Translations under genes and position numbers: made by a program | Source: Chloroflexota bacterium | GTDB lineage: Bacteria; Chloroflexota; Anaerolineae; UBA1429 | NCBI GenBank assembly: GCA_021372475.1 | Contig: JAJFUJ010000114.1 | Location: 1 to 23,024 of the forward strand | Direction: 5' to 3' | DNA: 23,024 bases | Part shown: piece after piece, positions 2,843-19,407 of the stretch | How positions within the stretch are numbered: position 1 is the stretch's first letter | Layout: each line of letters opens with the position of its first letter | Notes under the pieces: model-generated | The model's database searches: none | What the model was told of the DNA's origin: nothing | What the model saw: the letters and a program-made list of their open reading frames with translations, nothing else

Positions 2843-3031
2843 GCTTGCGGACTCCTTTGCTGGTACGACTAGTCAACCCAACCTGGCTTCCTCGAATAAT
2901 ACCCTCCAATACCTGTATTAGTAAACTATAACGATACTGTACCAACGAGTATTATAATGTCAAGAGAATATCGTGCTATACTATTTGCCTTGGCCATCGG
3001 TTCAAAATATAGAGTTGATTGAGGGGAACAC
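2843..3031. promoter_or_regulatory. AT-rich divergent intergenic region between the membrane-protein operon (minus) and the URO-D-family gene (plus).
   Basis: 189 bp with several TATAAT-like hexamers (tattataat near 2950). One plus-strand candidate is TTGCCT (2985-2990), 17 nt spacer, TATAGA (3008-3013). RBS GAGGGG lies 6 nt before the ATG at 3032. Confidence 0.3.
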
Positions 3032-4039
3032 ATGCCATCAATGCCCTCTGCATTAAGCTCGCGTGAGCGCGTGCGTCGTGCACTGCATTTTCAGACGCCA
3101 GACCGCATTCCGCTTGTCTTTCGGACAACTATTGAACACTCAGACATCATCAACACCGGCTACGGCGTTCCTACCGGCTGGCAGCCAGCCCAACCCGGCC
3201 TCGACGAATGGGGACGGCTTTGGTCAAATGTCATCGGTACTGGCATCGGGCAGATTATACAGGAGCCTTTAACGGGTCCGAGCCTAGCCGGCTATGAGCT
3301 ACCGAACCCACATATTGCCAGCCGCTATATAGGGGTCGAAAAGGCGGTTGCTAACTATCCGGATCGGTACATTGCCGCGTCGCTCGGGCTATCCGGGTTC
3401 ACGTGCATGATGGGTTTACGCGGTTATGAATCGCTGATGTGCGATTTGCTTACGGAGCCAGCCTTTATCGAACGCCTGGCGGACGCAGTGTTCGGTTTCG
3501 AAGCTGCTGTCATCGCCAACTATGCGCAGCGCGGGGTGAACGGCGTATGGTTATTTGATGACCTGGGCACCGAAAGCGGGCCAATGTTCAGCCCTCAAAT
3601 CTTCCGCAGCGTCTTCCTGCCGCGTTATACTGAGCAGGCGCGCCTGGCACATGCCCTGGGAATGGACTACCTGCTGCACTCGTGCGGCAATATATGGGAG
3701 CTGCTCCCCGACTTGGTTGCTGCTGGCTTTGATTTGCTAAACCTTGAACAGCCCCTCGTCTTCAGTACGCCGGAACTGAATGGTATTGATCGCCTAGCTG
3801 CACGCTGGGGTGGACGTATCTGTCTGTGTACCAACGTGGATTCACAACGCACCCTGATTAACGGGCCTCTCGCTGCAATCAGCGCTGAAGCAGAGCACCT
3901 GGTACACGCGCTTGGGCGGCCGGCGGGCGGTTTGATACTGCTGGCCGATTGCGGCGCGGATCACCATCTCGCTCCTGTTGAACATCTGGCGGCGCAAAGT
4001 AACGCATTCTTGCAGTTGGCGGCCGTCTTTCAAACGTAA
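3032..4039 (+). CDS. Uroporphyrinogen decarboxylase (URO-D) family protein, closest in pattern to the MtaA/CmuA-like methyltransferase branch.
   Basis: 335 aa. N-terminal RERVRRALHFQTPDRIP matches the URO-D family N-terminus (ERxLxALxxExxDRxP). C-terminal LHSCGN...LPDLVAAGFDLLNLEQ matches the HxCG...G.D motif of the family. Lacks the QAGRY motif of bona fide HemE. Confidence 0.6.
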   Translation: MPSMPSALSSRERVRRALHFQTPDRIPLVFRTTIEHSDIINTGYGVPTGWQPAQPGLDEWGRLWSNVIGTGIGQIIQEPLTGPSLAGYELPNPHIASRYIGVEKAVANYPDRYIAASLGLSGFTCMMGLRGYESLMCDLLTEPAFIERLADAVFGFEAAVIANYAQRGVNGVWLFDDLGTESGPMFSPQIFRSVFLPRYTEQARLAHALGMDYLLHSCGNIWELLPDLVAAGFDLLNLEQPLVFSTPELNGIDRLAARWGGRICLCTNVDSQRTLINGPLAAISAEAEHLVHALGRPAGGLILLADCGADHHLAPVEHLAAQSNAFLQLAAVFQT

Positions 4040-9483: not shown

Positions 9484-10536
9484 ATGTTGAGATTCACACC
9501 GGAACGTTTATGCACCGTGACCAGCCGGGTACTCAAAGCCGCAGGGGCGCGGGCCAGCTCAGCGGAGTGCGTAGCGGCTTCATTGGTCGAAAACAATCTG
9601 ATGGGTCATGAGTCGCACGGCGTACTGCGCATCAGCCAGTACACAAATGAGATCGCGAACGGTATCATTGATCCAGCAGGCATCATCCGGACACTGCGTG
9701 AAAGCGCGACTACTGCGCTGCTGGACGGCGGCCGCAACTTTGGGCAGATTGTCGCTCACCAGGCGATGGAAATGGCCATAGAACGCGCCCGCCGACACGA
9801 CCTGGGGTTGGTGGCCATCCGCAATTGCAGCCATACGGGGCGCCTCGGCGAGTATGCATGCCAGGCAGCGCGCGAAGGTCTCATCGGCCTGGTATTCTCA
9901 GCCGGTTCATCACCGGGCGGCATTGTGGCTCCCTACGGCGCCACCAGTCGGGCGTTGAATACAAATCCAATGTCCTGGGCTGTGCCGACTGCCAAATGCC
10001 CGATCCTCTTCCTGGATATGGCAACTTCGATGGTTGCCCAGGGGAAAATCGTTGCCGCCATCGATAATCAAAGACAGATCCCGCCTGGCTGGCTGTTGAA
10101 TGCTGCCGGTGAGCCGACCACCAATCCGCTGGATCAGAGAGAAGGGGGCGCACTTGTGCCTTTTGGCTTGCATAAAGGCTCGGGATTATCGGTAATGATC
10201 GACCTGGTCGCTGGTGGGCTGACGGGCCGCGGACCAGCTATCCTCCCCGAGTTTCAGCGTGATTACCCCACCGTCGTGGCTGCGCTCAACATCGAGGCCT
10301 TCCAACCTTTGGACGAATTCCGCGAGACCGCGGATAAATACATTGCGGCACTAAAGCAGGCGCGCAAGGCGCCTGGCGTAGAGGAAATATTCGTGCCCGG
10401 TGAAATCGAGTGGCGCACACGCCAGGACCGTCTGCAGCACGGCATCGAGATCCCCGAAGCTACCTGGGAACGCATCGTGAGCGCGGGAGCCAAACTCGGC
10501 CTGGATATTCAATTGCAAGAGGAGGTTGGACTATGA
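9484..10536 (+). CDS. Ldh_2 family (malate/L-lactate/L-sulfolactate-type) NAD(P)H-dependent oxidoreductase.
   Basis: Start at the ATG at 9484 with SD GAGGAAG. Conserved GHESHGVLR motif (GH[DE]SHG of PF02615) and the Gly-rich GGxxAPYGGT-like segment SSPGGIVAPYGATS. Confidence 0.75.
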   Translation: MLRFTPERLCTVTSRVLKAAGARASSAECVAASLVENNLMGHESHGVLRISQYTNEIANGIIDPAGIIRTLRESATTALLDGGRNFGQIVAHQAMEMAIERARRHDLGLVAIRNCSHTGRLGEYACQAAREGLIGLVFSAGSSPGGIVAPYGATSRALNTNPMSWAVPTAKCPILFLDMATSMVAQGKIVAAIDNQRQIPPGWLLNAAGEPTTNPLDQREGGALVPFGLHKGSGLSVMIDLVAGGLTGRGPAILPEFQRDYPTVVAALNIEAFQPLDEFRETADKYIAALKQARKAPGVEEIFVPGEIEWRTRQDRLQHGIEIPEATWERIVSAGAKLGLDIQLQEEVGL

Positions 10537-11309
10537 GAATCTATATTCTAACGGATATAGAAGGGGCGTGCGGTGTCTCGCGTTGGGATCAGGGCGACTG
10601 CACTTCACCTACTTACCCGCAGGCAGTGCGGTTGATGACCGCCGAATTGACCGCTTGTGTCGAGGGAATCCGCTCAATCGTTCCCAATGCAGAGATTTGC
10701 ATCTGGGATGCCCATGGGGCGGGCTCGATCGACTTCGAGCAGGTGCCGGCCGGCTGCCAGTTAATCAACAGTGGGGCGCTGCCCGCCCCTCTCCTCTTTG
10801 ACCAGGGCTGGGACGCGCTGTTTTTCCTGTGCCAACACTCCAAAGCAGGCACGCCGAACGGCAATCTGTGCCACACCTATTCATCCAGCTTAATCGAGTA
10901 TTTTAAGATCAACGGCCTGGAGCTGGGCGAGTTCGGCTGCCGGGCGGCGCTGGCCGGCAGCTACGGCATCCCCACCGTATTCGTCAGCGGCGATGATACG
11001 ATGATGGCCGAGGCCCAAGCTCTGGTGCCGGGTATCTTGTGCGCGCAGGTCAAAGTTGGGCTGGGCACGCAGTTAGCCAGGCACCTTGCGCCCGCGGATG
11101 CCCGCGCCTTGATTCGCGAGACGGCAGCCCTGGCCATCCTGCATTACAAGTCGATCCCGCCCCTGATACTGGCCGGACCTCCTTTCGAGCAGGAGATCAG
11201 GGTTGGGCCGAAGGCCGATCCCGCCATTATGATCAGTCGGGGGTTTCAGCAGTTGGACGCCTTTCGTTATGTAAAGCGTTCCAATAAGCTCGACGATCTA
11301 TGGATATGA
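10533..11309 (+). CDS. Peptidase M55 (D-aminopeptidase DppA-like) family protein.
   Basis: Start at the ATG at 10533 (SD GGAGG), overlapping the upstream stop as ATGA. MRIYILTDIEGACGVS mirrors the DppA N-terminus (MKxYxSxDxEGxxGV). VFVSGDDTMMAEAQALVPGI mirrors the DppA VLMVAGDDxAxxEA segment. Confidence 0.65.
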   Translation: MRIYILTDIEGACGVSRWDQGDCTSPTYPQAVRLMTAELTACVEGIRSIVPNAEICIWDAHGAGSIDFEQVPAGCQLINSGALPAPLLFDQGWDALFFLCQHSKAGTPNGNLCHTYSSSLIEYFKINGLELGEFGCRAALAGSYGIPTVFVSGDDTMMAEAQALVPGILCAQVKVGLGTQLARHLAPADARALIRETAALAILHYKSIPPLILAGPPFEQEIRVGPKADPAIMISRGFQQLDAFRYVKRSNKLDDLWI

Positions 11310-11331
11310 ATCAGTGAGCGAGGAGCACCCC

Positions 11332-11658
11332 ATGGGCAGTACTAGCGACTATGCTACTCGCTCCGGCGCTACCGCAGAGGTGGCCGAGGAAACCGGCCAG
11401 GTGCTGCGTGCAAACGGCAACGATGTCGAGGCGCGTGATGTCCGCCAGATAAAAGCGCTCTCTGGTTACAGCGCTATCGTATTAGGCTCACTGGCACGCA
11501 TAGGTAAACTGATGCCCGAGGTGCTGCGATTTGCCGAGCGCAGCGCCTCCATCCTGCGAGAACTGCCGGCCATCCGCTTTAGCCAGGGAGTGATCATGAA
11601 CCAGGACTCGCCGGAAAACCGCAGACAGGCCGAAGCCTTTTATACAGCCGCTGGTTGA
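11332..11658 (+). CDS. Short flavodoxin-like domain protein, possibly a truncated remnant.
   Basis: 109 aa from the ATG at 11332 with SD GAGGAG. YATRSGATAEVAEE resembles the flavodoxin Y-G-S-x-T-G-N-T phosphate loop. DVRQIKALSGYSAIVLGS resembles the DLSxYDAVVLGSP segment. However the beta-1 strand preceding the loop is polar (GSTSD) and the protein is ~50 aa shorter than typical flavodoxin_4 members. Confidence 0.35.
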   Translation: MGSTSDYATRSGATAEVAEETGQVLRANGNDVEARDVRQIKALSGYSAIVLGSLARIGKLMPEVLRFAERSASILRELPAIRFSQGVIMNQDSPENRRQAEAFYTAAG

Positions 11659-11849
11659 TTTGGTCACGCTCAAAGCGGCGAGGCTGTTTGGTGATGAGGT
11701 GGGCGCTCAAGCAGGATAAAGAAGGGGCTATGGCTATACCACCCGCCGACCACTGCGATTTTACTGCTTCCAGAGCGTGAGAGCTGCTAATATTTGTGCC
11801 CTGATATAACGCCAAAGTGACACAACCAACCATTGTCGGAGGATACTGA

Positions 11850-13316
11850 ATGAGCACACCAATCGTGATTCATCCGCAGAATCCAAAGCTATTTCTGTTT
11901 CGCGGTAAGCCCCGCGTGCTGTTGACCGCTACCGAGCATTATGGGGCAGTCATAAATCGCCCTTTCAACATGGCGCGCTACCTTGCCGATGCAGCCGAGC
12001 ATGGGATGACGCTGACGCGCCTGTTTATGCTCTTCCGCGAGCAGCAGTCTCCACAGAATCCGTACTCCACCTGTAAACCGGAGAGCACCGACTATATTAC
12101 ACCCTTTTTGCGCATAGGCCCTGGTAAAGCCACCGACTGGCTGCTAAAGTACAATCTCGATTGCTGGAATCCCGAGTTTTTCCAACGCCTGCACGCATTC
12201 CTGGGATTGGCCAGCGAGCACGGCATCATCGTCGAGGTTACTTTGCTTTCCAATACCTATGGCGAATCCGTATGGGCGCTCAACCCCCTGTATCACGACA
12301 ACAATATCAACGGGCTGGATAAAATCCCCTGGGCAGAGTATATGAGCCTGCGCCACCCCCGCCTGGTGGAATATCAATTGCGTCATGTGCGTAAAATCGT
12401 GACTGAGATCAATCCTTATGATAACGTCATCCTTGAGGTATGCAATGAGCCCGGCGGCTTCAGGCAGGAACCGCAATTCCCTACCCCTGAGGAAGTGAAT
12501 GCCTGGCAAAAAGTGATAATCGATACCATCCGCGAAACGGAGAGTGGTCTACCCAATCAGCATCTCATCAGCGGGCAGGAGGCCTTCACCTACGACCCCT
12601 TTACCCAGACATCAGATGCATCGTTCGCGGACATGAATTTCGATATCATCAACATGCACCCGCTGCCGGGAACAGTGTACCACGGTGCTACCTACGATAT
12701 GGGCAACTTTATGTCGGCTGAGCTGAACCTGCAGGCTGTGCGCGACTATGCCCTCGCCACATACAACGAACCCAAGCCGATGAACTATGATGAGGATAAC
12801 TGCGCCTCGCGCTTCCGCGACCAAACAGGCTGGACTATACACCGCAAGCGCGCCTGGGTGACGCTGCTCTCGGGCGGGCACTATGACCTGATTGATTTCT
12901 CAATTCAGTGCTATCTGGAGGCAGGCACGCCGGAAGCCAACCGCTATTTACGCACCTGGTTCAAGCATCTTTCAAACTTTATCCACCGTTTGGATTTGGC
13001 GCGCTGCCGCCCGATTTCCGGGCTAATCGCCGGGCAGCCCGACCATACGCTCGCGGCGTGCTATGGGATACCCGACAGCGATTATGTCATCTACCTGGCG
13101 GATTCCCGCGAACTGGATGATTACGGTGCTGGTAAACCGATCGGCGGCGAGTTGACGCTGAATCTGGAGCCGGGCGGCTATCGGATGTACTGCTATTCGC
13201 CCGTCAGCGGCATGGCGTCGCCCGGTATCTGGATTCAAGCCGAGGGGCAAACCAGCCTGGCGGTGCCGGAATTCGAGCAGGATATCGTCCTTCGCGTTGC
13301 ACGCGAACGCCACTAA
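11850..13316 (+). CDS. Clan GH-A (GH5-like cellulase-superfamily) glycoside hydrolase.
   Basis: 488 aa with SD GGAGGA. Conserved LEVCNEPGG (NEP acid/base motif of GH5-type TIM barrels). No signal peptide is evident. Confidence 0.55.
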   Translation: MSTPIVIHPQNPKLFLFRGKPRVLLTATEHYGAVINRPFNMARYLADAAEHGMTLTRLFMLFREQQSPQNPYSTCKPESTDYITPFLRIGPGKATDWLLKYNLDCWNPEFFQRLHAFLGLASEHGIIVEVTLLSNTYGESVWALNPLYHDNNINGLDKIPWAEYMSLRHPRLVEYQLRHVRKIVTEINPYDNVILEVCNEPGGFRQEPQFPTPEEVNAWQKVIIDTIRETESGLPNQHLISGQEAFTYDPFTQTSDASFADMNFDIINMHPLPGTVYHGATYDMGNFMSAELNLQAVRDYALATYNEPKPMNYDEDNCASRFRDQTGWTIHRKRAWVTLLSGGHYDLIDFSIQCYLEAGTPEANRYLRTWFKHLSNFIHRLDLARCRPISGLIAGQPDHTLAACYGIPDSDYVIYLADSRELDDYGAGKPIGGELTLNLEPGGYRMYCYSPVSGMASPGIWIQAEGQTSLAVPEFEQDIVLRVARERH

Positions 13317-13327
13317 CTCTTTAAGCA

Positions 13328-14167
13328 TCACCAGTCTACGGCAGGGGTACGCTCCAGGTCCAAGGCAAAATCGACATCCTCATCCAGCCACTCCGCCGCG
13401 CGGGGAGAGCCGGATGTGCCGGCGCGTTCACACAGCGTGCGGTAAGCGCAGGTTATGCAATATTCCTGCCGCTCTGTCTTGGTAAACGCTTCTTCGGGCG
13501 CGCCGGCGATCTCCTCTGCCAACTCAGTGAGCAGCACACGGTCATCCTCCAGATTGGCGCGGCTGTAGGGGATATACACTGTTGCCTCAGGCTCATTGGC
13601 GAACCAGTAACACATCTCGATGCGTTCCGGCGCCACGGGTGCGCCCTGGGTAAGGATGTTGCCAGCGCAAGCCAGCATATAACAATAAATACGTGTCTGC
13701 AGCCGAGTACGCAGCGTTTTGAGGGAGGGCACAGCCTGCAGTGTTTTCCAGTCCACTATCACAGCGCGTCCCTCGCGCTGCAGGGCAATCAAATCGTAGC
13801 GCGCGTACAGGCGGTACGCCCCCAGCCCGATAGTCAGCGGGTATTCTGACAGAAGCACTTCATGTGGCAACAACGCGTAATCGAACGACTTCCAGGCCGA
13901 CCACCAGGATTGCAGCAAGGGATCGTCCGTTGCGTTCACCTGTAAATCAACCGGCAGGCCGAGTTGAGCGCGTTCGAGCCAGCGGTGAAAGATAACACCG
14001 CGCTGCAGATGCTGCTGATACTCGAGGGGCTGTTCGCCCTCGGCCATCGGCCATGGTTGGCGCTGCACATATCTGAGCCAAAAGCGCCGTTTGCAGCGCT
14101 GGTAAGTGCTCAGGCTGTGCTGGCTTAACTGAAAACCCGCAGGCAAGTGATTCGCCGCAGCGCTCAT
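13328..14167 (-). CDS. Cas4/AddB-type PD-(D/E)XK (RecB-family) nuclease with a predicted 4Fe-4S cluster; third gene of the helicase operon.
   Basis: N-terminal Cys in YQRCKRRFWLRY. C-terminal C-x2-C-x5-C (CITCAYRTLC). RecB-family motif II RYDLIAL, motif III IVDWKT and QxxxY motif (LQTRIYCYML). The preferred start at 14167 has a GGAGG SD and sits 1 nt after the TGA stop of the upstream helicase; an alternative ATG is at 14191. Confidence 0.7.
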   Translation of the reverse strand: MSAAANHLPAGFQLSQHSLSTYQRCKRRFWLRYVQRQPWPMAEGEQPLEYQQHLQRGVIFHRWLERAQLGLPVDLQVNATDDPLLQSWWSAWKSFDYALLPHEVLLSEYPLTIGLGAYRLYARYDLIALQREGRAVIVDWKTLQAVPSLKTLRTRLQTRIYCYMLACAGNILTQGAPVAPERIEMCYWFANEPEATVYIPYSRANLEDDRVLLTELAEEIAGAPEEAFTKTERQEYCITCAYRTLCERAGTSGSPRAAEWLDEDVDFALDLERTPAVDW

Positions 14168-14168
14168 G

Positions 14169-16385
14169 TCAGGCGCCTCCGGCGATAGCATACAGTGCTA
14201 GAGGCAACCGTACGGGTCGTTTGCCACTAGTCCCGGCATACGAGATATATAGGTCGCATCTGGCTCGGGTGATGGCTACATAAAGCAGCCGCAGGCGCTC
14301 CGCGATCTGTTCCCGGCGCGAGTGCTGCACCAGCGCCGGCACATCCTGCTGGATGCCCGTAGCCGACATGAGTTGTTCCAGCACTGCACTTGTCTCCAGC
14401 TCCGGCGCACGTTCCTGCATATAGTAAGGTTCGCTGCGAAAGACGTCGTCGCTGGTATCCGGGAATTCCAGGGTATCAACACAAATGAGGTACACCACGT
14501 CCCACTCCAGCCCCTTGGCTTTGTGCATCGTTGTGACGGCGGTGCGGCCGGCGCGCGGTTCATAGCCCGCATCTACAAAAGCGATTTCCGCCAAGCTGCG
14601 TTTGTTCTGTGCAATTTGGGATAATTCGGCGGCGTATTCCCCCAGGCGCCACTCCGGATGGATTTGCCAGAGCGAACGCAGACGGCCGGCCAGGACATGG
14701 GTAATGGCCAGATCGCCTTCCGCCCGAAACAAGTCCTGCGCAATGGTCAGCACCAGTTGATCGGCCGGCAGCACCACTGCCCTGAGCCAGCGGGCGGCGA
14801 GTTCCACAAAACGGGCGAGCAGCGGGAGTTCTTCGGGCAGCGGCCGAGCCTGCGCCGGCAGACTCTCATACCAGAGCTCGGCCTGCGTCGGGAAAAAGAC
14901 CTGCTCCGGCGGGGCGGAAGCAACTAACGTCTTTTGCGCGCGCAGCCGGAACCCGGCCTGCGCCTCACCCAGGTATCCGCCTTTAGCCAGCGTCTCATAC
15001 AGTGCAGCCTGGCTGCTCACGCTGGGTTTATGAAGAAAAACGAGTACCTTCTCCAGGACGCCGGTCACATGGCGGGTTTGAGGGGTTGAACGCAGCAGGT
15101 CATCGAAAGGGGGCTTCGGCGATATCTTTGCGAACTCGTTCACGACCACCGCCCCCTGCTTATTGGTGGGGCACAGGATGGCCTGCGAATAGCCCGGATG
15201 CCGCCTACCGTAGTCAACCGCCTTCGTTACTACCCTGTTTGCCAGAGTTTCAAGGTCAGGGAAAGGCTCAGTTATGATACGCACGTGACTCTCTTCTGCT
15301 GGCGGATTGGGCTGCGGATCTCCAACACGCGTCGGCAGGATATCCTGTTCCTCGAAAGCGATACGTCGAATCTCGTCTTCGGGGTGCTGCTGGCACACCC
15401 AATGCACAAGCGAATTGGCCAGGTTGATAATCGGGCTTGCGCTGCGCCCCGATTCCGGCAGCGCGCAGGTCTTGACAACAGGGTCAGCCAAGAAGCGTCT
15501 GAAAAAGAGCGGGTCGGCGGTGGTAAAGGTGGCGTTGATCGATTGATTCGGGTCGCCCATCCGCACCCAGTTGCCATCCTCGCCGGCCAGGCAGCGCAGG
15601 ATGGTCTCCTGCAGCGGGCTGCTGTCCTGGGCTTCGTCCTCCAGGATAAACGGCCAGCGCCGTCTGAGACCTTCCGTATAGCTAGCGTCCTCGTCCAGCG
15701 CATCGATGGCCCGCCAGATGAGGTCGTCGAAATCCAGCGCATTTTGCGTGCCCAGGTAGTTTTGGTAACCGGCGTACAGCTCCAAACCGATCAAAGCGAT
15801 GTCATGCGTAATGCCCACCTTACGGGCCTGGATGCGGGCCTGCTCCGGCGTAAGCCGCAGGTGTTTGCAGGCTTTGACGGCTGCCAGACCTATTTTCCTG
15901 GTCTGTTCCTGCCAACTGGTCCGCGCGTTGCGGTTGTCATCAGGGATAAAGCTGCTCCAATAAGCAACGTGTCCGGCAACCCAGGTATTTACGGCGTGGG
16001 TCATCAAGCTATCTCGCTCAGCATCATCAATAATCACGAACGCGTCCTCCACGCCGGCTATATCGTTGCGGATACGCAGGATATCGGCCGCGAGGCGATG
16101 CAACGTGCATACATGGTAGCCGACAGGCGGCAGCCCCTGTGCCTGCAGGATGGCCTTGATGCGTCGCGAGATATTATCCACCGCCGAGTTCTGCACCGTC
16201 ACTACCAGCACTTCGCCTTCTTCGCCCAATTTGCCCTCGATAATGAGCCGGGCAGCCAGAAGCGCCAGCGTGAGCGTCTTGCCGGAACCGGGCACCGCTG
16301 AGACGCCCATCAGCCCGCCCTGGTAAGCGAGGATGGCGCGCTGATGCTCGCGCAGTTGATAGCCATATAATTCGGATGATGTCAT
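14169..16385 (-). CDS. UvrD/Rep/PcrA-like SF1A DNA helicase with all motor motifs and no nuclease domain.
   Basis: 738 aa. Motif I AVPGSGKT, Ia TVQNSAVDNI, Ib CTLHRLA, II LEDEAQD, III GDPNQSINATFTTADP, V TTMHKAKGLEWDVVYL, VI VAITRARCDLYISY. The ORF ends right after motif VI. Confidence 0.8.
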   Translation of the reverse strand: MTSSELYGYQLREHQRAILAYQGGLMGVSAVPGSGKTLTLALLAARLIIEGKLGEEGEVLVVTVQNSAVDNISRRIKAILQAQGLPPVGYHVCTLHRLAADILRIRNDIAGVEDAFVIIDDAERDSLMTHAVNTWVAGHVAYWSSFIPDDNRNARTSWQEQTRKIGLAAVKACKHLRLTPEQARIQARKVGITHDIALIGLELYAGYQNYLGTQNALDFDDLIWRAIDALDEDASYTEGLRRRWPFILEDEAQDSSPLQETILRCLAGEDGNWVRMGDPNQSINATFTTADPLFFRRFLADPVVKTCALPESGRSASPIINLANSLVHWVCQQHPEDEIRRIAFEEQDILPTRVGDPQPNPPAEESHVRIITEPFPDLETLANRVVTKAVDYGRRHPGYSQAILCPTNKQGAVVVNEFAKISPKPPFDDLLRSTPQTRHVTGVLEKVLVFLHKPSVSSQAALYETLAKGGYLGEAQAGFRLRAQKTLVASAPPEQVFFPTQAELWYESLPAQARPLPEELPLLARFVELAARWLRAVVLPADQLVLTIAQDLFRAEGDLAITHVLAGRLRSLWQIHPEWRLGEYAAELSQIAQNKRSLAEIAFVDAGYEPRAGRTAVTTMHKAKGLEWDVVYLICVDTLEFPDTSDDVFRSEPYYMQERAPELETSAVLEQLMSATGIQQDVPALVQHSRREQIAERLRLLYVAITRARCDLYISYAGTSGKRPVRLPLALYAIAGGA

Positions 16386-16394
16386 AGTGGCATT

Positions 16395-18575
16395 CTAGAT
16401 AGGGTTGTTGTTCTGTGAATACAAGAGAGCATTCTGCAAGATACGTTCCAAACGCCCCGATTGCTCCTCGCCGTTGATGCCCAGCTCGCTCGAGACCAGG
16501 AAAATTCCTCCGCTGCAGCGGGCAGCCAGGCCTATCAGTACCCGACCGAGCCCCTCGCGGCGCGCCTGATCCTCGTCAGCATCATACCAGATGCGCCCCG
16601 TTTGCCAGGCACGCGAGAGGACGTAAGGTTGCGTAAGCGGTTGGTTGGGACGGTTCCACCAGCCGTCAACGCGCAAGTCGCACCAAAACTGGTAGCGCGA
16701 GCGCAGCCCCCGAGTCAGATACGCAAAAGCCGGAGCCAGAATCACGGCATCGAGCGCCTCGTCCAGACGGTCCTCGATGTATTCGGCGCTTGCCAGGCCG
16801 TTGAGCACAAAAGCAGTATATATAGCGCCCGGATCATCTGCGACCGAGAAGCCACCGGATCCAGCACCTGCACTACCGGCTAGGCGGAACTTGAGAGCAG
16901 ATTCAACCAATCGGCTGTAGCTGTGAGCCAGATCCGCGCGCAGATAGAAGCCGTATCCAGGCAAAGTTAACAACTCGCCAAAAATCTGTGATAAAAAGAT
17001 ATCCAGTGGCTGCTGCTCGCGACCGGCATAGTCAGCCAGCCAGGTACGCAGCGCCTCGTAGCGCTCGCGCAATTGGAAGCCGAGACGCTGCCAGAGCATC
17101 CCGGCCTGGGCTGCGGTCGCCTGAACCTGACCGGATAGGTCAGTCAGAGCCATATTCCCCTGGGGCAGCGCAGATTCGGCCAACAACCGCGCCCTTACCG
17201 GGTCCAGATTGGCCAGCATGACTCCGAGCATCTCGGCCAGGTCCTCGACCGGCAACGTCCTGAGCACCGCTTCTGAGCTTGCCCATGTGGGGTGGGCCAA
17301 ACGAGCGAGAGTCAAGCCAGCACGCACAATCACATCATCGCGCAAAGGGGTAGCGGGACGCAGCAAGTATTGGCCAATCCCCCTTTCGTGCAATTCCTCC
17401 TCAAGGGCAAAGCGCATCACCTCGCTCACATAAGGGGCAACCACGGCAATTTCGCCCGGCGCGCAGCCTGCCTCCACCAGATGAGCAATCTCGTTGGCGA
17501 TCCAGCGAATCATTCCTACCCAGTAGCGTTCGCTACGCTGCCCGAGCACAGCCCGACGCGCATCTCCCACCGCAGATATATTAGCCTGAGGCAGGTGCAT
17601 AACCGAACACACCCTGTTTGCCAAGGTGAGTATATCAGGGTTTATGCCCGGCAGGCTATCCATGCGCAGCTCCTGAGAGCAACGTTCTCCCAGGTTGCGA
17701 GCTGCCTGCCGGTCGGCTCCTAAAAAGATTCTGTATCCGCCACCTTCATCTTCAGCCAGCACAGAGGAAGCGCATAAGGGCTGTAGCCAGGCGATATAAT
17801 CGCTGGCCACCGGCACGGTTTCCTCGATGTTATCGGCGATCAAGTGCCGCACATGCTCTGCTAGATATGTTTTGTATGCCCGGCTGGGGTAGATTAACTC
17901 CACAAAGAGCTGAGTTGTCAGTGAGAGGTCCAAAAGCGAGTGCGCCAGACAGTATGCGCGAAAACGCATAGCGCAGTCCTGCGCCTGCTGATAGCTGGCG
18001 TAACGGTGTTCGCTGCCGGCCCAGGCTGATATCAGCCGGCTTGCTATCTCCTGGGGAGCAAAGCCGACCAGCGCCGATTTGTTCAAATTATCGATGAGCT
18101 GCGAAAGAAGCCGTTCGCGACGGATGGTGATATCCGCAAAGTAGCCATTTTCCTGGACAAGGGGCTGCAAGATACGCGCCATATGATACTGGGTGCTCTC
18201 CACGTTCATAAAAGTCGGCTCCAATTCGGGGTGCTTGAAGCCGGCGGAACCCGACACCAGTGGCCAAAATAGCGCTACAGCGCGCTGGCAAAGGCCATAG
18301 AAAGTGGTGATAGTCACACTACCGTTGATAAACCATGTAGAATGCGCCAACGCCTGCTCAAAGGTCTCTCTTTGCGATCTGTCGCTGACGAGTACCAGGA
18401 TTTGGTCAGGCCGAACCCCCTCTTTAATCAACGCCAACATGCGTGCGACCAGCGCAGTAGTCTTGCCGCTGCCGGCCAGACCGTGGACCCACAGGCCATT
18501 ACCTCCCTGTTTTGGGAAGTCTACTACTATTCGTTGTGTTTCTATTAGGTCAGTATAGTTTGAAGCTATTATCAT
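16395..18575 (-). CDS. UvrD-family helicase-like protein with intact Walker A but degenerate catalytic motifs (AddB/RexB-like non-motor subunit candidate); first gene of the operon.
   Basis: 726 aa. Motif I GLAGSGKT and a TFH-like ITTFYGLC are present. The motif II position reads LIADNIEET instead of DExQD, and motifs III, V and VI are poorly recognisable (GADRQA, GLAARCSGGIF). Its stop is 9 nt before the start of the next helicase. Confidence 0.65.
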   Translation of the reverse strand: MIIASNYTDLIETQRIVVDFPKQGGNGLWVHGLAGSGKTTALVARMLALIKEGVRPDQILVLVSDRSQRETFEQALAHSTWFINGSVTITTFYGLCQRAVALFWPLVSGSAGFKHPELEPTFMNVESTQYHMARILQPLVQENGYFADITIRRERLLSQLIDNLNKSALVGFAPQEIASRLISAWAGSEHRYASYQQAQDCAMRFRAYCLAHSLLDLSLTTQLFVELIYPSRAYKTYLAEHVRHLIADNIEETVPVASDYIAWLQPLCASSVLAEDEGGGYRIFLGADRQAARNLGERCSQELRMDSLPGINPDILTLANRVCSVMHLPQANISAVGDARRAVLGQRSERYWVGMIRWIANEIAHLVEAGCAPGEIAVVAPYVSEVMRFALEEELHERGIGQYLLRPATPLRDDVIVRAGLTLARLAHPTWASSEAVLRTLPVEDLAEMLGVMLANLDPVRARLLAESALPQGNMALTDLSGQVQATAAQAGMLWQRLGFQLRERYEALRTWLADYAGREQQPLDIFLSQIFGELLTLPGYGFYLRADLAHSYSRLVESALKFRLAGSAGAGSGGFSVADDPGAIYTAFVLNGLASAEYIEDRLDEALDAVILAPAFAYLTRGLRSRYQFWCDLRVDGWWNRPNQPLTQPYVLSRAWQTGRIWYDADEDQARREGLGRVLIGLAARCSGGIFLVSSELGINGEEQSGRLERILQNALLYSQNNNPI

Positions 18576-18635: not shown

Positions 18636-18674
18636 GGAGCAAAACACAAACCGTATCATGGGGCGATACGGTTT
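18636..18674 (-). terminator. Rho-independent terminator of the lipoprotein gene, insulating it from the helicase operon.
   Basis: Perfect inverted repeat AACCGTATC / GATACGGTT (18648-18674) with a 7 nt loop. On the minus strand it is followed by TTTGTGTTTTGC. Confidence 0.5.
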
Positions 18675-18717
18675 GTGAATGCTGAATTCAAAAAGGTATG
18701 CTACTCGAGTTATCAGT

Positions 18718-19191
18718 CTAGAACGTGCACTTGGAAATGCCCCACTTGCCGTTCACTTTCTCCAAAAACACCTGAGTTGTCCGCGCAGTGTCGCGGGTTT
18801 GTGTACCACACCGGTAAGAATAGCCTACAACCCAGAGCACGCGATCGGTAATCCCCTTGGCTCTATCAGCATCGGTTACTTCTGGCACTTTAAGGTTTGC
18901 TCCCGGGGCTCCAACCTGGACGCTTTCTGGTTTAGTAGTGCACTGCTTTTGTTTGTCATTCAATATAGTGCTTTCGATGGCTTCTTTGGTTACATAACCA
19001 AAGCCAGTAAGGGGTACTGCTAAGGCCATTGCGGCGTCCGGATCGCGCGTTACAAAAACAGCAAGAGCAAACTCTTGGGCAATCCGCTTTGTTTCCTCTT
19101 CTTCGGGATTAGCTTTTTTACAACCAACCGCTGCCACGGCAATAGTTGACACTAGAATCACCGCCAACAGCACTCGTACCACTGGTTTCAT
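18718..19191 (-). CDS. Small secreted lipoprotein, hypothetical.
   Basis: Start at the ATG at 19191 with AAGGAG SD; the track's GTG at 19206 is less likely. Signal peptide MKPVVRVLLAVILVSTIAVAAVGC with a lipobox-like AVGC followed by KK. AT-rich composition. Confidence 0.5.
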   Translation of the reverse strand: MKPVVRVLLAVILVSTIAVAAVGCKKANPEEEETKRIAQEFALAVFVTRDPDAAMALAVPLTGFGYVTKEAIESTILNDKQKQCTTKPESVQVGAPGANLKVPEVTDADRAKGITDRVLWVVGYSYRCGTQTRDTARTTQVFLEKVNGKWGISKCTF

Positions 19192-19407
19192 ATTCTGCTC
19201 CTTCACATTTATCCTAACAACAGCACCAGAATGATACTACCAGCCAATATAATAAGCCAACCGAAGGATGTGTCAAGATAGTGGTTATTTTGCCATTTAC
19301 AACGCCAACTCTCTTTGTAGTTATGTGGCGATATACAGGAGCACAAGCCCTCCGTTTATTAGCCTACCGGCGAGCGGCAAGCAGTATAGGTTTTATAGCC
19401 GGGCACG

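Follow-up and report, generated by a model that had tools for sequence, protein, structure and literature searches.

A nuclease of the iron-staple kind encoded behind two superfamily 1 helicases in Anaerolineae: a candidate split counterpart of AddAB and AdnAB

What does a nuclease resembling Cas4 and AddB do when its gene lies directly behind that of a UvrD-like helicase? This arrangement occurs in contig JAJFUJ010000114.1 of a Chloroflexota bacterium of the class Anaerolineae (GenBank assembly GCA_021372475.1), of which positions 1 to 23,024, here called the window, were analyzed. The nuclease is encoded last in an operon with the gene order helB-helA-nuclease, in which helA and helB encode helicase-like proteins of superfamily 1 (SF1). 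We report that the nuclease gene is translationally coupled to helA, co-inherited with helA and helB, and recurrently linked to recJ, and we discuss a reading of the operon as a DNA end-resection machine built from separate proteins.

13328-14167, minus strand: nuclease gene, 279 aa plus stop; putative free-standing PD-(D/E)XK (RecB-family) nuclease with a four-cysteine "iron staple"
14169-16385, minus strand: helA, 738 aa; UvrD/PcrA-like SF1A helicase (PF00580, E = 1e-39, plus UvrD_C)
16395-18575, minus strand: helB, 726 aa; degenerate SF1A paralogue (weak PF00580 match, E = 4.8e-9)

RESULTS

The nuclease gene starts one nucleotide after helA

A preliminary description of the window had placed the nuclease in an open reading frame (ORF) at 13328-14191 on the minus strand and quoted the motifs YQRCKRRF, RYDLIAL, IVDWKT, QTRIY, and CITCAYRTLC, all of which were found in the sequence (within TYQRCKRRF, ARYDLIAL, IVDWKT, LQTRIY, and CITCAYRTLC). 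It had also located a start codon at 14167, served by a GGAGG Shine-Dalgarno sequence and one nucleotide past the helicase stop codon, and the letters of the junction agree (GGAGGCGCCTGACATG): GGAGG occupies 14180-14176, the helA TGA 14171-14169, and a single C 14168, with the nuclease ATG at 14167. A start at the alternative ATG 14191 would overlap the helA ORF by 23 nt, as described, and would add the eight residues MLSPEAPD. The homologues favor 14167. The MLSPEAPD extension was present in none of those compared, and a start matching 14167 was found in 24 homologues and in the NCBI annotation of the same contig (P0001, 279 aa, "MAG: Chloroflexi bacterium", a metagenome-assembled genome). 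The nuclease gene was therefore taken as 13328-14167, and the stretch ahead of it probably lies outside the translated nuclease.

14176-14180, minus strand: GGAGG Shine-Dalgarno sequence, 8 nt 5' of ATG 14167 and within the end of the helA ORF, read from the sequence
14168-14191, minus strand: 24-nt stretch that the alternative ATG 14191 would add, within the helA coding sequence

The nuclease belongs to the RecB family and carries an iron staple

Residues 21-255 of the nuclease aligned with the full length of the Pfam profile PF12705 (PDDEXK_1; positions 1-247 of 247). The match (E = 1.4e-27; 97.7 bits, cut-off 22) goes well past anything that chance would give, and all listed nuclease homologues carry PF12705. 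Residue conservation was checked in an earlier alignment of 25 sequences and in a fuller one of 233 distinct family members, from which the following values are taken. The set of RecB-family motifs is complete and conserved (motif I GxxxH, motif II D, motif III (D/E)xK, and QxxxY). His-61, Glu-108, Asp-125, Lys-141, Gln-157, and Tyr-161 are 100% conserved, Asp-139 is 99% conserved, and Gly-57 of motif I is 99-100% conserved. The core from Asp-125 to Tyr-161 aligns with the motifs of AdnB and Cas4.

14093-14095, minus strand: codon of Cys-25 (YQRCKRRF), candidate N-terminal ligand of an iron-sulfur (Fe-S) cluster, in 100% of the 233 family members
13985-13987, minus strand: codon of motif I His-61, conserved in the family
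13685-13795, minus strand: catalytic core Asp-125 to Tyr-161, comprising RYDLIA (Asp-125), VDWKT (Asp-139-x-Lys-141), and Gln-157-x3-Tyr-161; conservation 99-100% (n = 233)
13430-13459, minus strand: cysteine triad C237-X2-C240-X5-C246 (CITCAYRTLC), conserved at 99%, 99.6%, and 99%

The nuclease core is enclosed by one N-terminal cysteine and a C-terminal C-X2-C-X5-C, which is the iron-staple pattern, and the pattern is kept in orthologues (Cys-25, 100%; Cys-237, 99%; Cys-240, 99.6%; Cys-246, 99%). The four-cysteine signature flanking RecB motifs had been pointed out in the preliminary description, where a lack of cysteine conservation in orthologues was named beforehand as the finding that would speak against this reading; at 99-100% conservation the reading stands. 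Together these four cysteines probably hold an Fe-S cluster, likely of the 4Fe-4S type.

Annotation of the family is otherwise only generic, although several JGI records name nuclease homologues "CRISPR/Cas system-associated exonuclease Cas4 (RecB family)". The window protein scored below the cut-offs of the curated Cas4 models (PF01930, 18.7 against 22.7; TIGR00372, 24 against 65), to which Cas4 proteins such as SSO0001 (PDB 4ic1) and the type I-C Cas4 (PDB 8d3l) are assigned. The NCBIfam addB model gave 11 bits against a cut-off of 486, and the addA model likewise scored far under its cut-off. Because the curated models stay below threshold, and from the fold and profile comparisons described next, we regard the protein as a distinct Fe-S RecB-like subfamily. 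The evidence supports a free-standing RecB-family nuclease of the iron-staple kind found in Cas4, AddB, AdnA, EXO5, and Dna2, as judged from its motifs. The earlier label, a stand-alone nuclease of Cas4/AddB type, is thereby supported, with the refinement that the curated models do not make the protein a Cas4.

The predicted fold is closest to the AdnA nuclease domain

An AlphaFold2 model of the nuclease, made from the 25-sequence alignment, had a predicted local distance difference test score (pLDDT) of 84 and a predicted template modeling score (pTM) of 0.83, and was confident except for the last 26 residues. Comparison of this model with known folds gave the following scores.

AdnA nuclease domain: 18.0 (root mean square deviation 2.9 Å over 222 residues)
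ACE1: 13.8
Dna2: 13.0
Cas4-Cas1: 11.1
AddB: 11.0
Cas4: 10.3-10.8
EXO5: 10.2
RecB: 9.3

The modeled nuclease is thus closest in shape to the nuclease domain of AdnA. A Foldseek search with the model returned the same families, with ACE1 at the top (E = 2e-8). When the family profile was compared with PDB chains, the AdnB nuclease domain matched best (E = 1.4e-3), and Cas4 SSO0001 (E = 0.09) and AdnA (E = 0.15-0.28) were also detected; the best PDB match of the single sequence was Cas4 SSO0001 (E = 0.006).

The poorly predicted C terminus is acidic. Over the last 30 aa the mean net charge is -9.4 among the 233 family members, and the C-terminal residue is Phe, Tyr, or Trp in 207 of them, with the consensus E-[ILV]-[EAD]-[FYW]-COOH; the window protein ends in AVDW. 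SSB has an acidic C-terminal tip by which it docks on RecJ, RecQ, and other proteins. By its likeness to that tip, the tail with its aromatic end is a possible docking peptide and may tether the nuclease to helA, helB, or RecJ.

13331-13408, minus strand: disordered acidic C-terminal tail, residues 254-279 (pLDDT < 50)

helA has the motifs of an active motor and helB those of a degenerate one

The best sequence matches of helA in the PDB were PcrA and UvrD. Motifs Q, I, Ia, Ib, II, III (GDxNQ, which reads GDPNQ in the window), IV, V, and VI are conserved among 56 orthologues, and with every SF1 motif in place helA is predicted to be a competent 3'-5' motor of the UvrD type. It has no nuclease domain; both helA and helB end at the 2A domain.

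15624-15638, minus strand: helA motif II, DEAQD
18459-18473, minus strand: helB Walker A motif, GSGKT, kept
17820-17837, minus strand: helB motif II, D-N-I-E-E, catalytic Glu replaced by Asn

Among 23 helB orthologues the Q-motif, Walker A (Gly-32, Gly-37, Lys-38), and the motif VI arginine (Arg-686) are retained. Motif II reads D-N-x-E-E, with Asn in place of the catalytic Glu in at least 90% of these proteins, and the glutamine of motif III is lost. An AlphaFold2 model of helB (pLDDT 88.5) has a complete four-subdomain SF1A fold, for which Foldseek found UvrD (E = 5e-22) and also AdnB, AddB, AdnA, and RecB. All SF1A structures matched when compared with the helB fold, the lowest E-value being that of UvrD and the best root mean square deviation that of AdnB/AddB. 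Some helB orthologues touch the Pfam family ADDB_N. The preliminary description had spoken of a nuclease recruited to a helicase module; such a module is present, with the amendment that it consists of two genes, one of which is a catalytically degenerate SF1 paralogue.

A recent duplication of helA as the source of helB was ruled out, as BLASTP likeness between the two is limited to the region of the Q-motif and Walker A (E = 0.048). The confinement of likeness to this region makes the pair ancient. Antisense to helA lies a 367-aa ORF (15198-16301, plus strand), and several shorter ones run antisense to the helicase genes; all are most likely by-products of high G+C content and not genes.

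The three genes are inherited together

Relatives' loci were located with two peptide patterns and tblastn, so that the counts given here are approximate lower bounds; many of the sequences come from MAGs, relatives were examined as loci, and structures are predictions. With each GTDB species represented by a single genome, the pattern scan gave 163 species that have a relative of the nuclease, of which 80 were kept. Seventy-seven of the 80 are labeled Anaerolineae or Chloroflexota or as genera of Anaerolineae, the cultured Ornatilinea apprima among them, and the three exceptions are two entries named "uncultured bacterium" and one "Bipolaricaulota" MAG.

helA was directly 5' of the nuclease gene on the same strand in 64 of the 77 informative loci (83%), nearly all from Anaerolineae and usually with helB before it as judged by tblastn. 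In two further loci the helicase genes were near the nuclease gene on the opposite strand. The helA stop codon and the nuclease start codon overlapped or were no more than 10 nt apart in 41 of the 64 syntenic loci, 19 of them by an ATGA overlap, and the coupling of the nuclease to the motor helicase that had been noticed in the window is a trait of the family. Identity to the window proteins covaried across loci, with Spearman coefficients of 0.84 for nuclease and helA, 0.73 for nuclease and helB, and 0.66 for helA and helB, as fits co-inheritance of the three genes.

A hidden Markov model (HMM) of the nuclease was searched against 1.84 billion representative proteins and matched 603 clusters at E ≤ 1e-30, nearly all of them 250-310 aa long. 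One protein, P0228 (394 aa), is an apparent frameshifted chimera of the end of helA and the nuclease. The sole long protein among the best 150 HMM matches, the metagenomic P0305 (1112 aa), combines NERD, protein-kinase, and nuclease domains with no helicase, and by this domain content is a different use of the same nuclease.

recJ and other repair genes recur beside the module

In 25 of 76 informative loci, including those of Ornatilinea apprima and Bellilinea, the nuclease gene was followed directly by a recJ gene in the same orientation, with DHH, DHHA1, and RecJ_OB domains. The nuclease gene adjoined recJ even where it was unlinked from the helicase genes (loci L038, L039, L041, and L064). 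Among the 17 loci of the clade to which the window belongs (identity of 46% or more), none has recJ next to the nuclease gene, and the window accordingly holds a three-gene version of the module. In the Thermoflexales MAGs of loci L003 (3243-6652) and L036, genes for a RecQ-like superfamily 2 helicase (697 aa; DEAD/ResIII/Helicase_C) and dprA (439 aa) stand between helB and helA, while the helicase genes are adjacent in the sister locus L004.

The nuclease had two plasmid matches. One is a weak match (26%) on an Allocoleopsis plasmid without helA or helB. The other is on plasmid pSR56 of Salinibacter ruber M8, where a four-gene cluster is annotated as hypothetical protein, ATP-dependent helicase, PD-(D/E)XK nuclease, and RecJ.

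NC_014028.1 (pSR56), 10001-17884: helB-helA-nuclease-recJ cluster of Salinibacter ruber M8 (L087)

The pSR56 proteins are 34-37% identical to helB, helA, and the nuclease, and keep every key residue. Salinibacter ruber is a hypersaline member of the Rhodothermota; its plasmid pSR56 measures 56 kb, is non-mobilizable, and encodes next to the cluster a DEAD/DEAH helicase of 1313 aa and an XRE regulator. Because the nuclease clade is small and the nearest relatives are from Anaerolineae, horizontal acquisition of the Salinibacter copy is suggested.

A further helB-helA-nuclease-recJ cluster was seen on a 5-kb contig of another phylum, from a MAG named "Candidatus Bipolaricaulota" (L032, DATCIV010000258.1), and is to be put down to horizontal transfer or to an error in binning.

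DISCUSSION

A split AddAB/AdnAB-like machine

RecBCD, AddAB, and AdnAB are the three textbook architectures of bacterial end resection, and in all three the nucleases are fused to helicase-like subunits. The pairing of a live with a dead SF1 helicase is seen in AddA/AddB, AdnB/AdnA, and RecB/RecC (PMC13000450, PMC3321194, and established knowledge). The operon encodes a set like that of this class, namely an active SF1A motor, an inactivated SF1-like scaffold, and a RecB-type nuclease. By analogy, we consider it rather probable that helB, helA, and the nuclease are a split AddAB/AdnAB-like end-resection machine in which a single Fe-S nuclease acts in trans.

The machine could work as follows. 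A single mRNA would yield helB, helA, and the nuclease, the translation of the last being coupled to that of helA, and the three proteins would act jointly, presumably as a complex, at DNA ends or forks. helA would track in the 3'-5' direction and pull the 3' strand, and helB, itself inert, would serve as the scaffold and so correspond to the helicase-like parts of AddB, AdnA, or RecC. In AdnAB, the AdnA nuclease domain bears an Fe-S cluster and takes in the displaced 5' strand (PMC13000450). The nuclease would replace this domain, or that of AddB, by threading and cutting the displaced 5' strand in the manner of AdnA, AddB, Cas4, Dna2, and EXO5. RecJ, co-encoded in many relatives, could then extend degradation in the 5'-3' direction and leave a 3' tail for RecA loading. 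UvrD and RecJ have been implicated in break repair in Deinococcus, a bacterium without RecBC (PMC2806897).

The operon differs from each of the known systems. In mycobacterial AdnAB the AdnA nuclease (PDB 9np6_A and 6ppu_A) is fused C-terminally to a motor-like domain. The window nuclease is a protein of its own, 279 aa long, and its gene follows that of the active motor; AdnB has a second nuclease and helA has none. AddB of Bacillus subtilis AddAB (PDB 3u44_B and 4cej_B) is a single polypeptide of ~1160 aa, and AddA has a nuclease of its own. The gene order there is addB-addA with the nuclease inside addB, in contrast to helB-helA-nuclease with a separate nuclease ORF; neither a nuclease fused to an inactivated AddB-like subunit nor a second nuclease on an AddA-like motor is found here. 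Dna2 and EXO5 are eukaryotic Fe-S nucleases of the 5' strand, Dna2 being fused to an SF1B helicase, and the comparison with them does not imply orthology.

A comparable arrangement was published by Hudaiberdiev et al. 2017, who described operons of unfused UvrD and pfam12705 Cas4-like genes, "mostly Clostridiales", and suggested a role in repair (PMC5704561). Like the window, these operons have a pfam12705 nuclease and a UvrD-like helicase as separate genes of one operon in a non-defense context. They are two-gene operons from another phylum for which no experiments were reported, likened here by description, and the paper (PMC5704561) does not have the degenerate second SF1 protein, the recJ linkage, or the spread among Anaerolineae. 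In a limited literature search, neither the three- or four-gene module of Anaerolineae nor its dead SF1 partner nor its recJ linkage was seen described, and nothing relevant turned up on AddAB, helicase-nucleases, or RecBCD in Anaerolineae or Chloroflexota.

A separate Fe-S nuclease, a motor free of nuclease, and a frequent recJ together form an arrangement unlike RecBCD, AddAB, or AdnAB. If the proposed reading is true, the same division of labor can be built from free parts, and the module offers a natural system in which to ask what the Fe-S nuclease domain contributes alone. It would also fill a gap for the Anaerolineae, a large class that is abundant in the environment and little studied. 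In practice, the present analysis corrects the name "Cas4" that hundreds of metagenomic proteins have received automatically. A more far-reaching proposal, which we put forward as possible but doubtful, is that the module, ancestrally with recJ, represents a fourth class of bacterial double-strand-break resection machine, a heterotrimer in which a detachable Fe-S nuclease specific for the 5' strand joins a live SF1A motor and its dead SF1 scaffold, and serves as the principal resection system of Anaerolineae. The nuclease would perhaps be tethered, or would recruit RecJ, through its SSB-like acidic tail.

Several observations weigh against a split AddAB/AdnAB-like machine. Against PDB chains the sequence likeness of the nuclease to AddB, AdnA, and Cas4 is weak (E = 1e-3 or worse), and no helicase-nuclease fusion was seen among the best 150 of 2,660 HMM matches to the nuclease family. 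Simple fission of a gene of AddB or AdnA type fails to explain the gene order, because the nuclease gene follows helA and not helB. As the operon has only one nuclease, it cannot use the chemistry of AddAB and AdnAB, which takes two. The pSR56 copy has a large DEAD-box helicase and an XRE regulator as neighbors, a setting consistent with a function tied to mobile elements. Finally, the nuclease gene is unlinked from the helicase genes in 11 of the 77 informative loci, so that the nuclease may also act alone or with RecJ.

Alternative explanations

These 11 loci would fit an alternative that we consider unlikely, in which the nuclease mainly processes 5' flaps or single-stranded DNA independently, in the manner of EXO5, Dna2, and MGME1, and partners RecJ and RecFOR at stalled forks, gaps, or Okazaki flaps, while the helicases are loose operon neighbors. 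The direct linkage to helA in 83% of the informative loci, mostly with overlapping stop and start codons, argues against such looseness, since an overlap of this kind usually signals matched stoichiometry within a complex. In addition, the divergence of the nuclease correlates better with that of helA than helA does with helB (0.84 against 0.66).

It is improbable, in our judgment, that the operon is an anti-phage or anti-plasmid defense module whose SF1 helicase and Cas4-like nuclease degrade invading DNA. helA does match the PADLOC models of GajB, the Gabija helicase (best E = 1.4e-41), but these matches reflect generic UvrD similarity. Gabija pairs the UvrD helicase GajB with GajA, an OLD-family ATPase-nuclease, whereas the partner here is a PDDEXK_1 and not an OLD/TOPRIM protein, and the Gabija pairing is absent. 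The nuclease matches the PADLOC models of Cas4 and of the Argonaute-associated Cas4-like nuclease (E = 2.6e-8 to 4e-6). ACE1, which is co-encoded with long-A prokaryotic Argonaute (pAgo) in cyanobacteria and acts in defense, is only 17-19% identical to the nuclease, and no Piwi or Argonaute domain was found among the window ORFs or the inspected neighbors. Fusions of UvrD with Cas4 (pfam12705) have been linked to defense contexts, beside type III restriction-modification and Dcm/Vsr genes (PMC5704561), and one copy of the module is on the Salinibacter ruber plasmid; both observations would favor defense. Neither the window nor the inspected loci, however, contained GajA, restriction-modification, Argonaute, or other defense genes. 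Phage relatives are likewise lacking, with no match in 50,697 phage records and a single weak one (28% identity) in IMG/VR. At other loci the flanking genes are housekeeping genes that vary from locus to locus (greA, lepA, rpsU, and ybeY), and the recurrent partners are recJ, the recQ-like gene, and dprA. Occurrence mainly in one bacterial class, with three proteins diverging in step, fits vertical inheritance and not a defense island.

A genuine Cas4 that trims prespacers for Cas1-Cas2 in CRISPR adaptation, with the CRISPR-cas locus elsewhere in the genome, is very improbable despite the Cas4 names of the JGI homologue records and the best single-sequence PDB match to SSO0001, because the protein falls below both curated thresholds, its partners are SF1 helicases and RecJ, and the neighborhood of a Cas4 is missing: domain and repeat scans of the window found no cas gene or domain (cas1 and cas2 included), CRISPR-like array, tandem repeat, or Rfam match, as the preliminary description had said of cas genes and CRISPR arrays, and no CRISPR-like array was next to the nuclease gene in related loci totaling ~1.1 Mb; locus by locus, the family is not seen together with cas1/cas2.

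Surroundings of the operon

The split AddAB/AdnAB-like machine that we favor would be expressed from an operon whose 5' boundary is probably marked by a terminator-like hairpin. A promoter scan found no convincing sigma-70-type promoter between this hairpin and helB.

18645-18677, minus strand: terminator-like hairpin with a 14-bp stem and a T-run, from a consensus scan; between a lipoprotein-like gene (18718-19206) and the helB start

The flanking genes of the window are metabolic (GH5-like, peptidase M55, Ldh_2, HpcH aldolase, LysE, subtilase, and rubrerythrin). Two adjacent ORFs at 254-2233 (659 aa) and 2249-2842 (197 aa), both on the minus strand, had no Pfam match at E ≤ 1e-5. At related locus L035, an 18-mer occurs five times with a 95-nt period at 2922-3302, ~5 kb from the nuclease gene; a typical CRISPR array would have a shorter spacing. 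The peptidase M55 (D-aminopeptidase) gene of the window (10410-11309, plus strand) is ~2 kb from the nuclease gene, and its counterpart is directly beside the nuclease gene in loci L001 (11030-11803) and L002. This proximity is probably residual synteny, and a functional link is unlikely.

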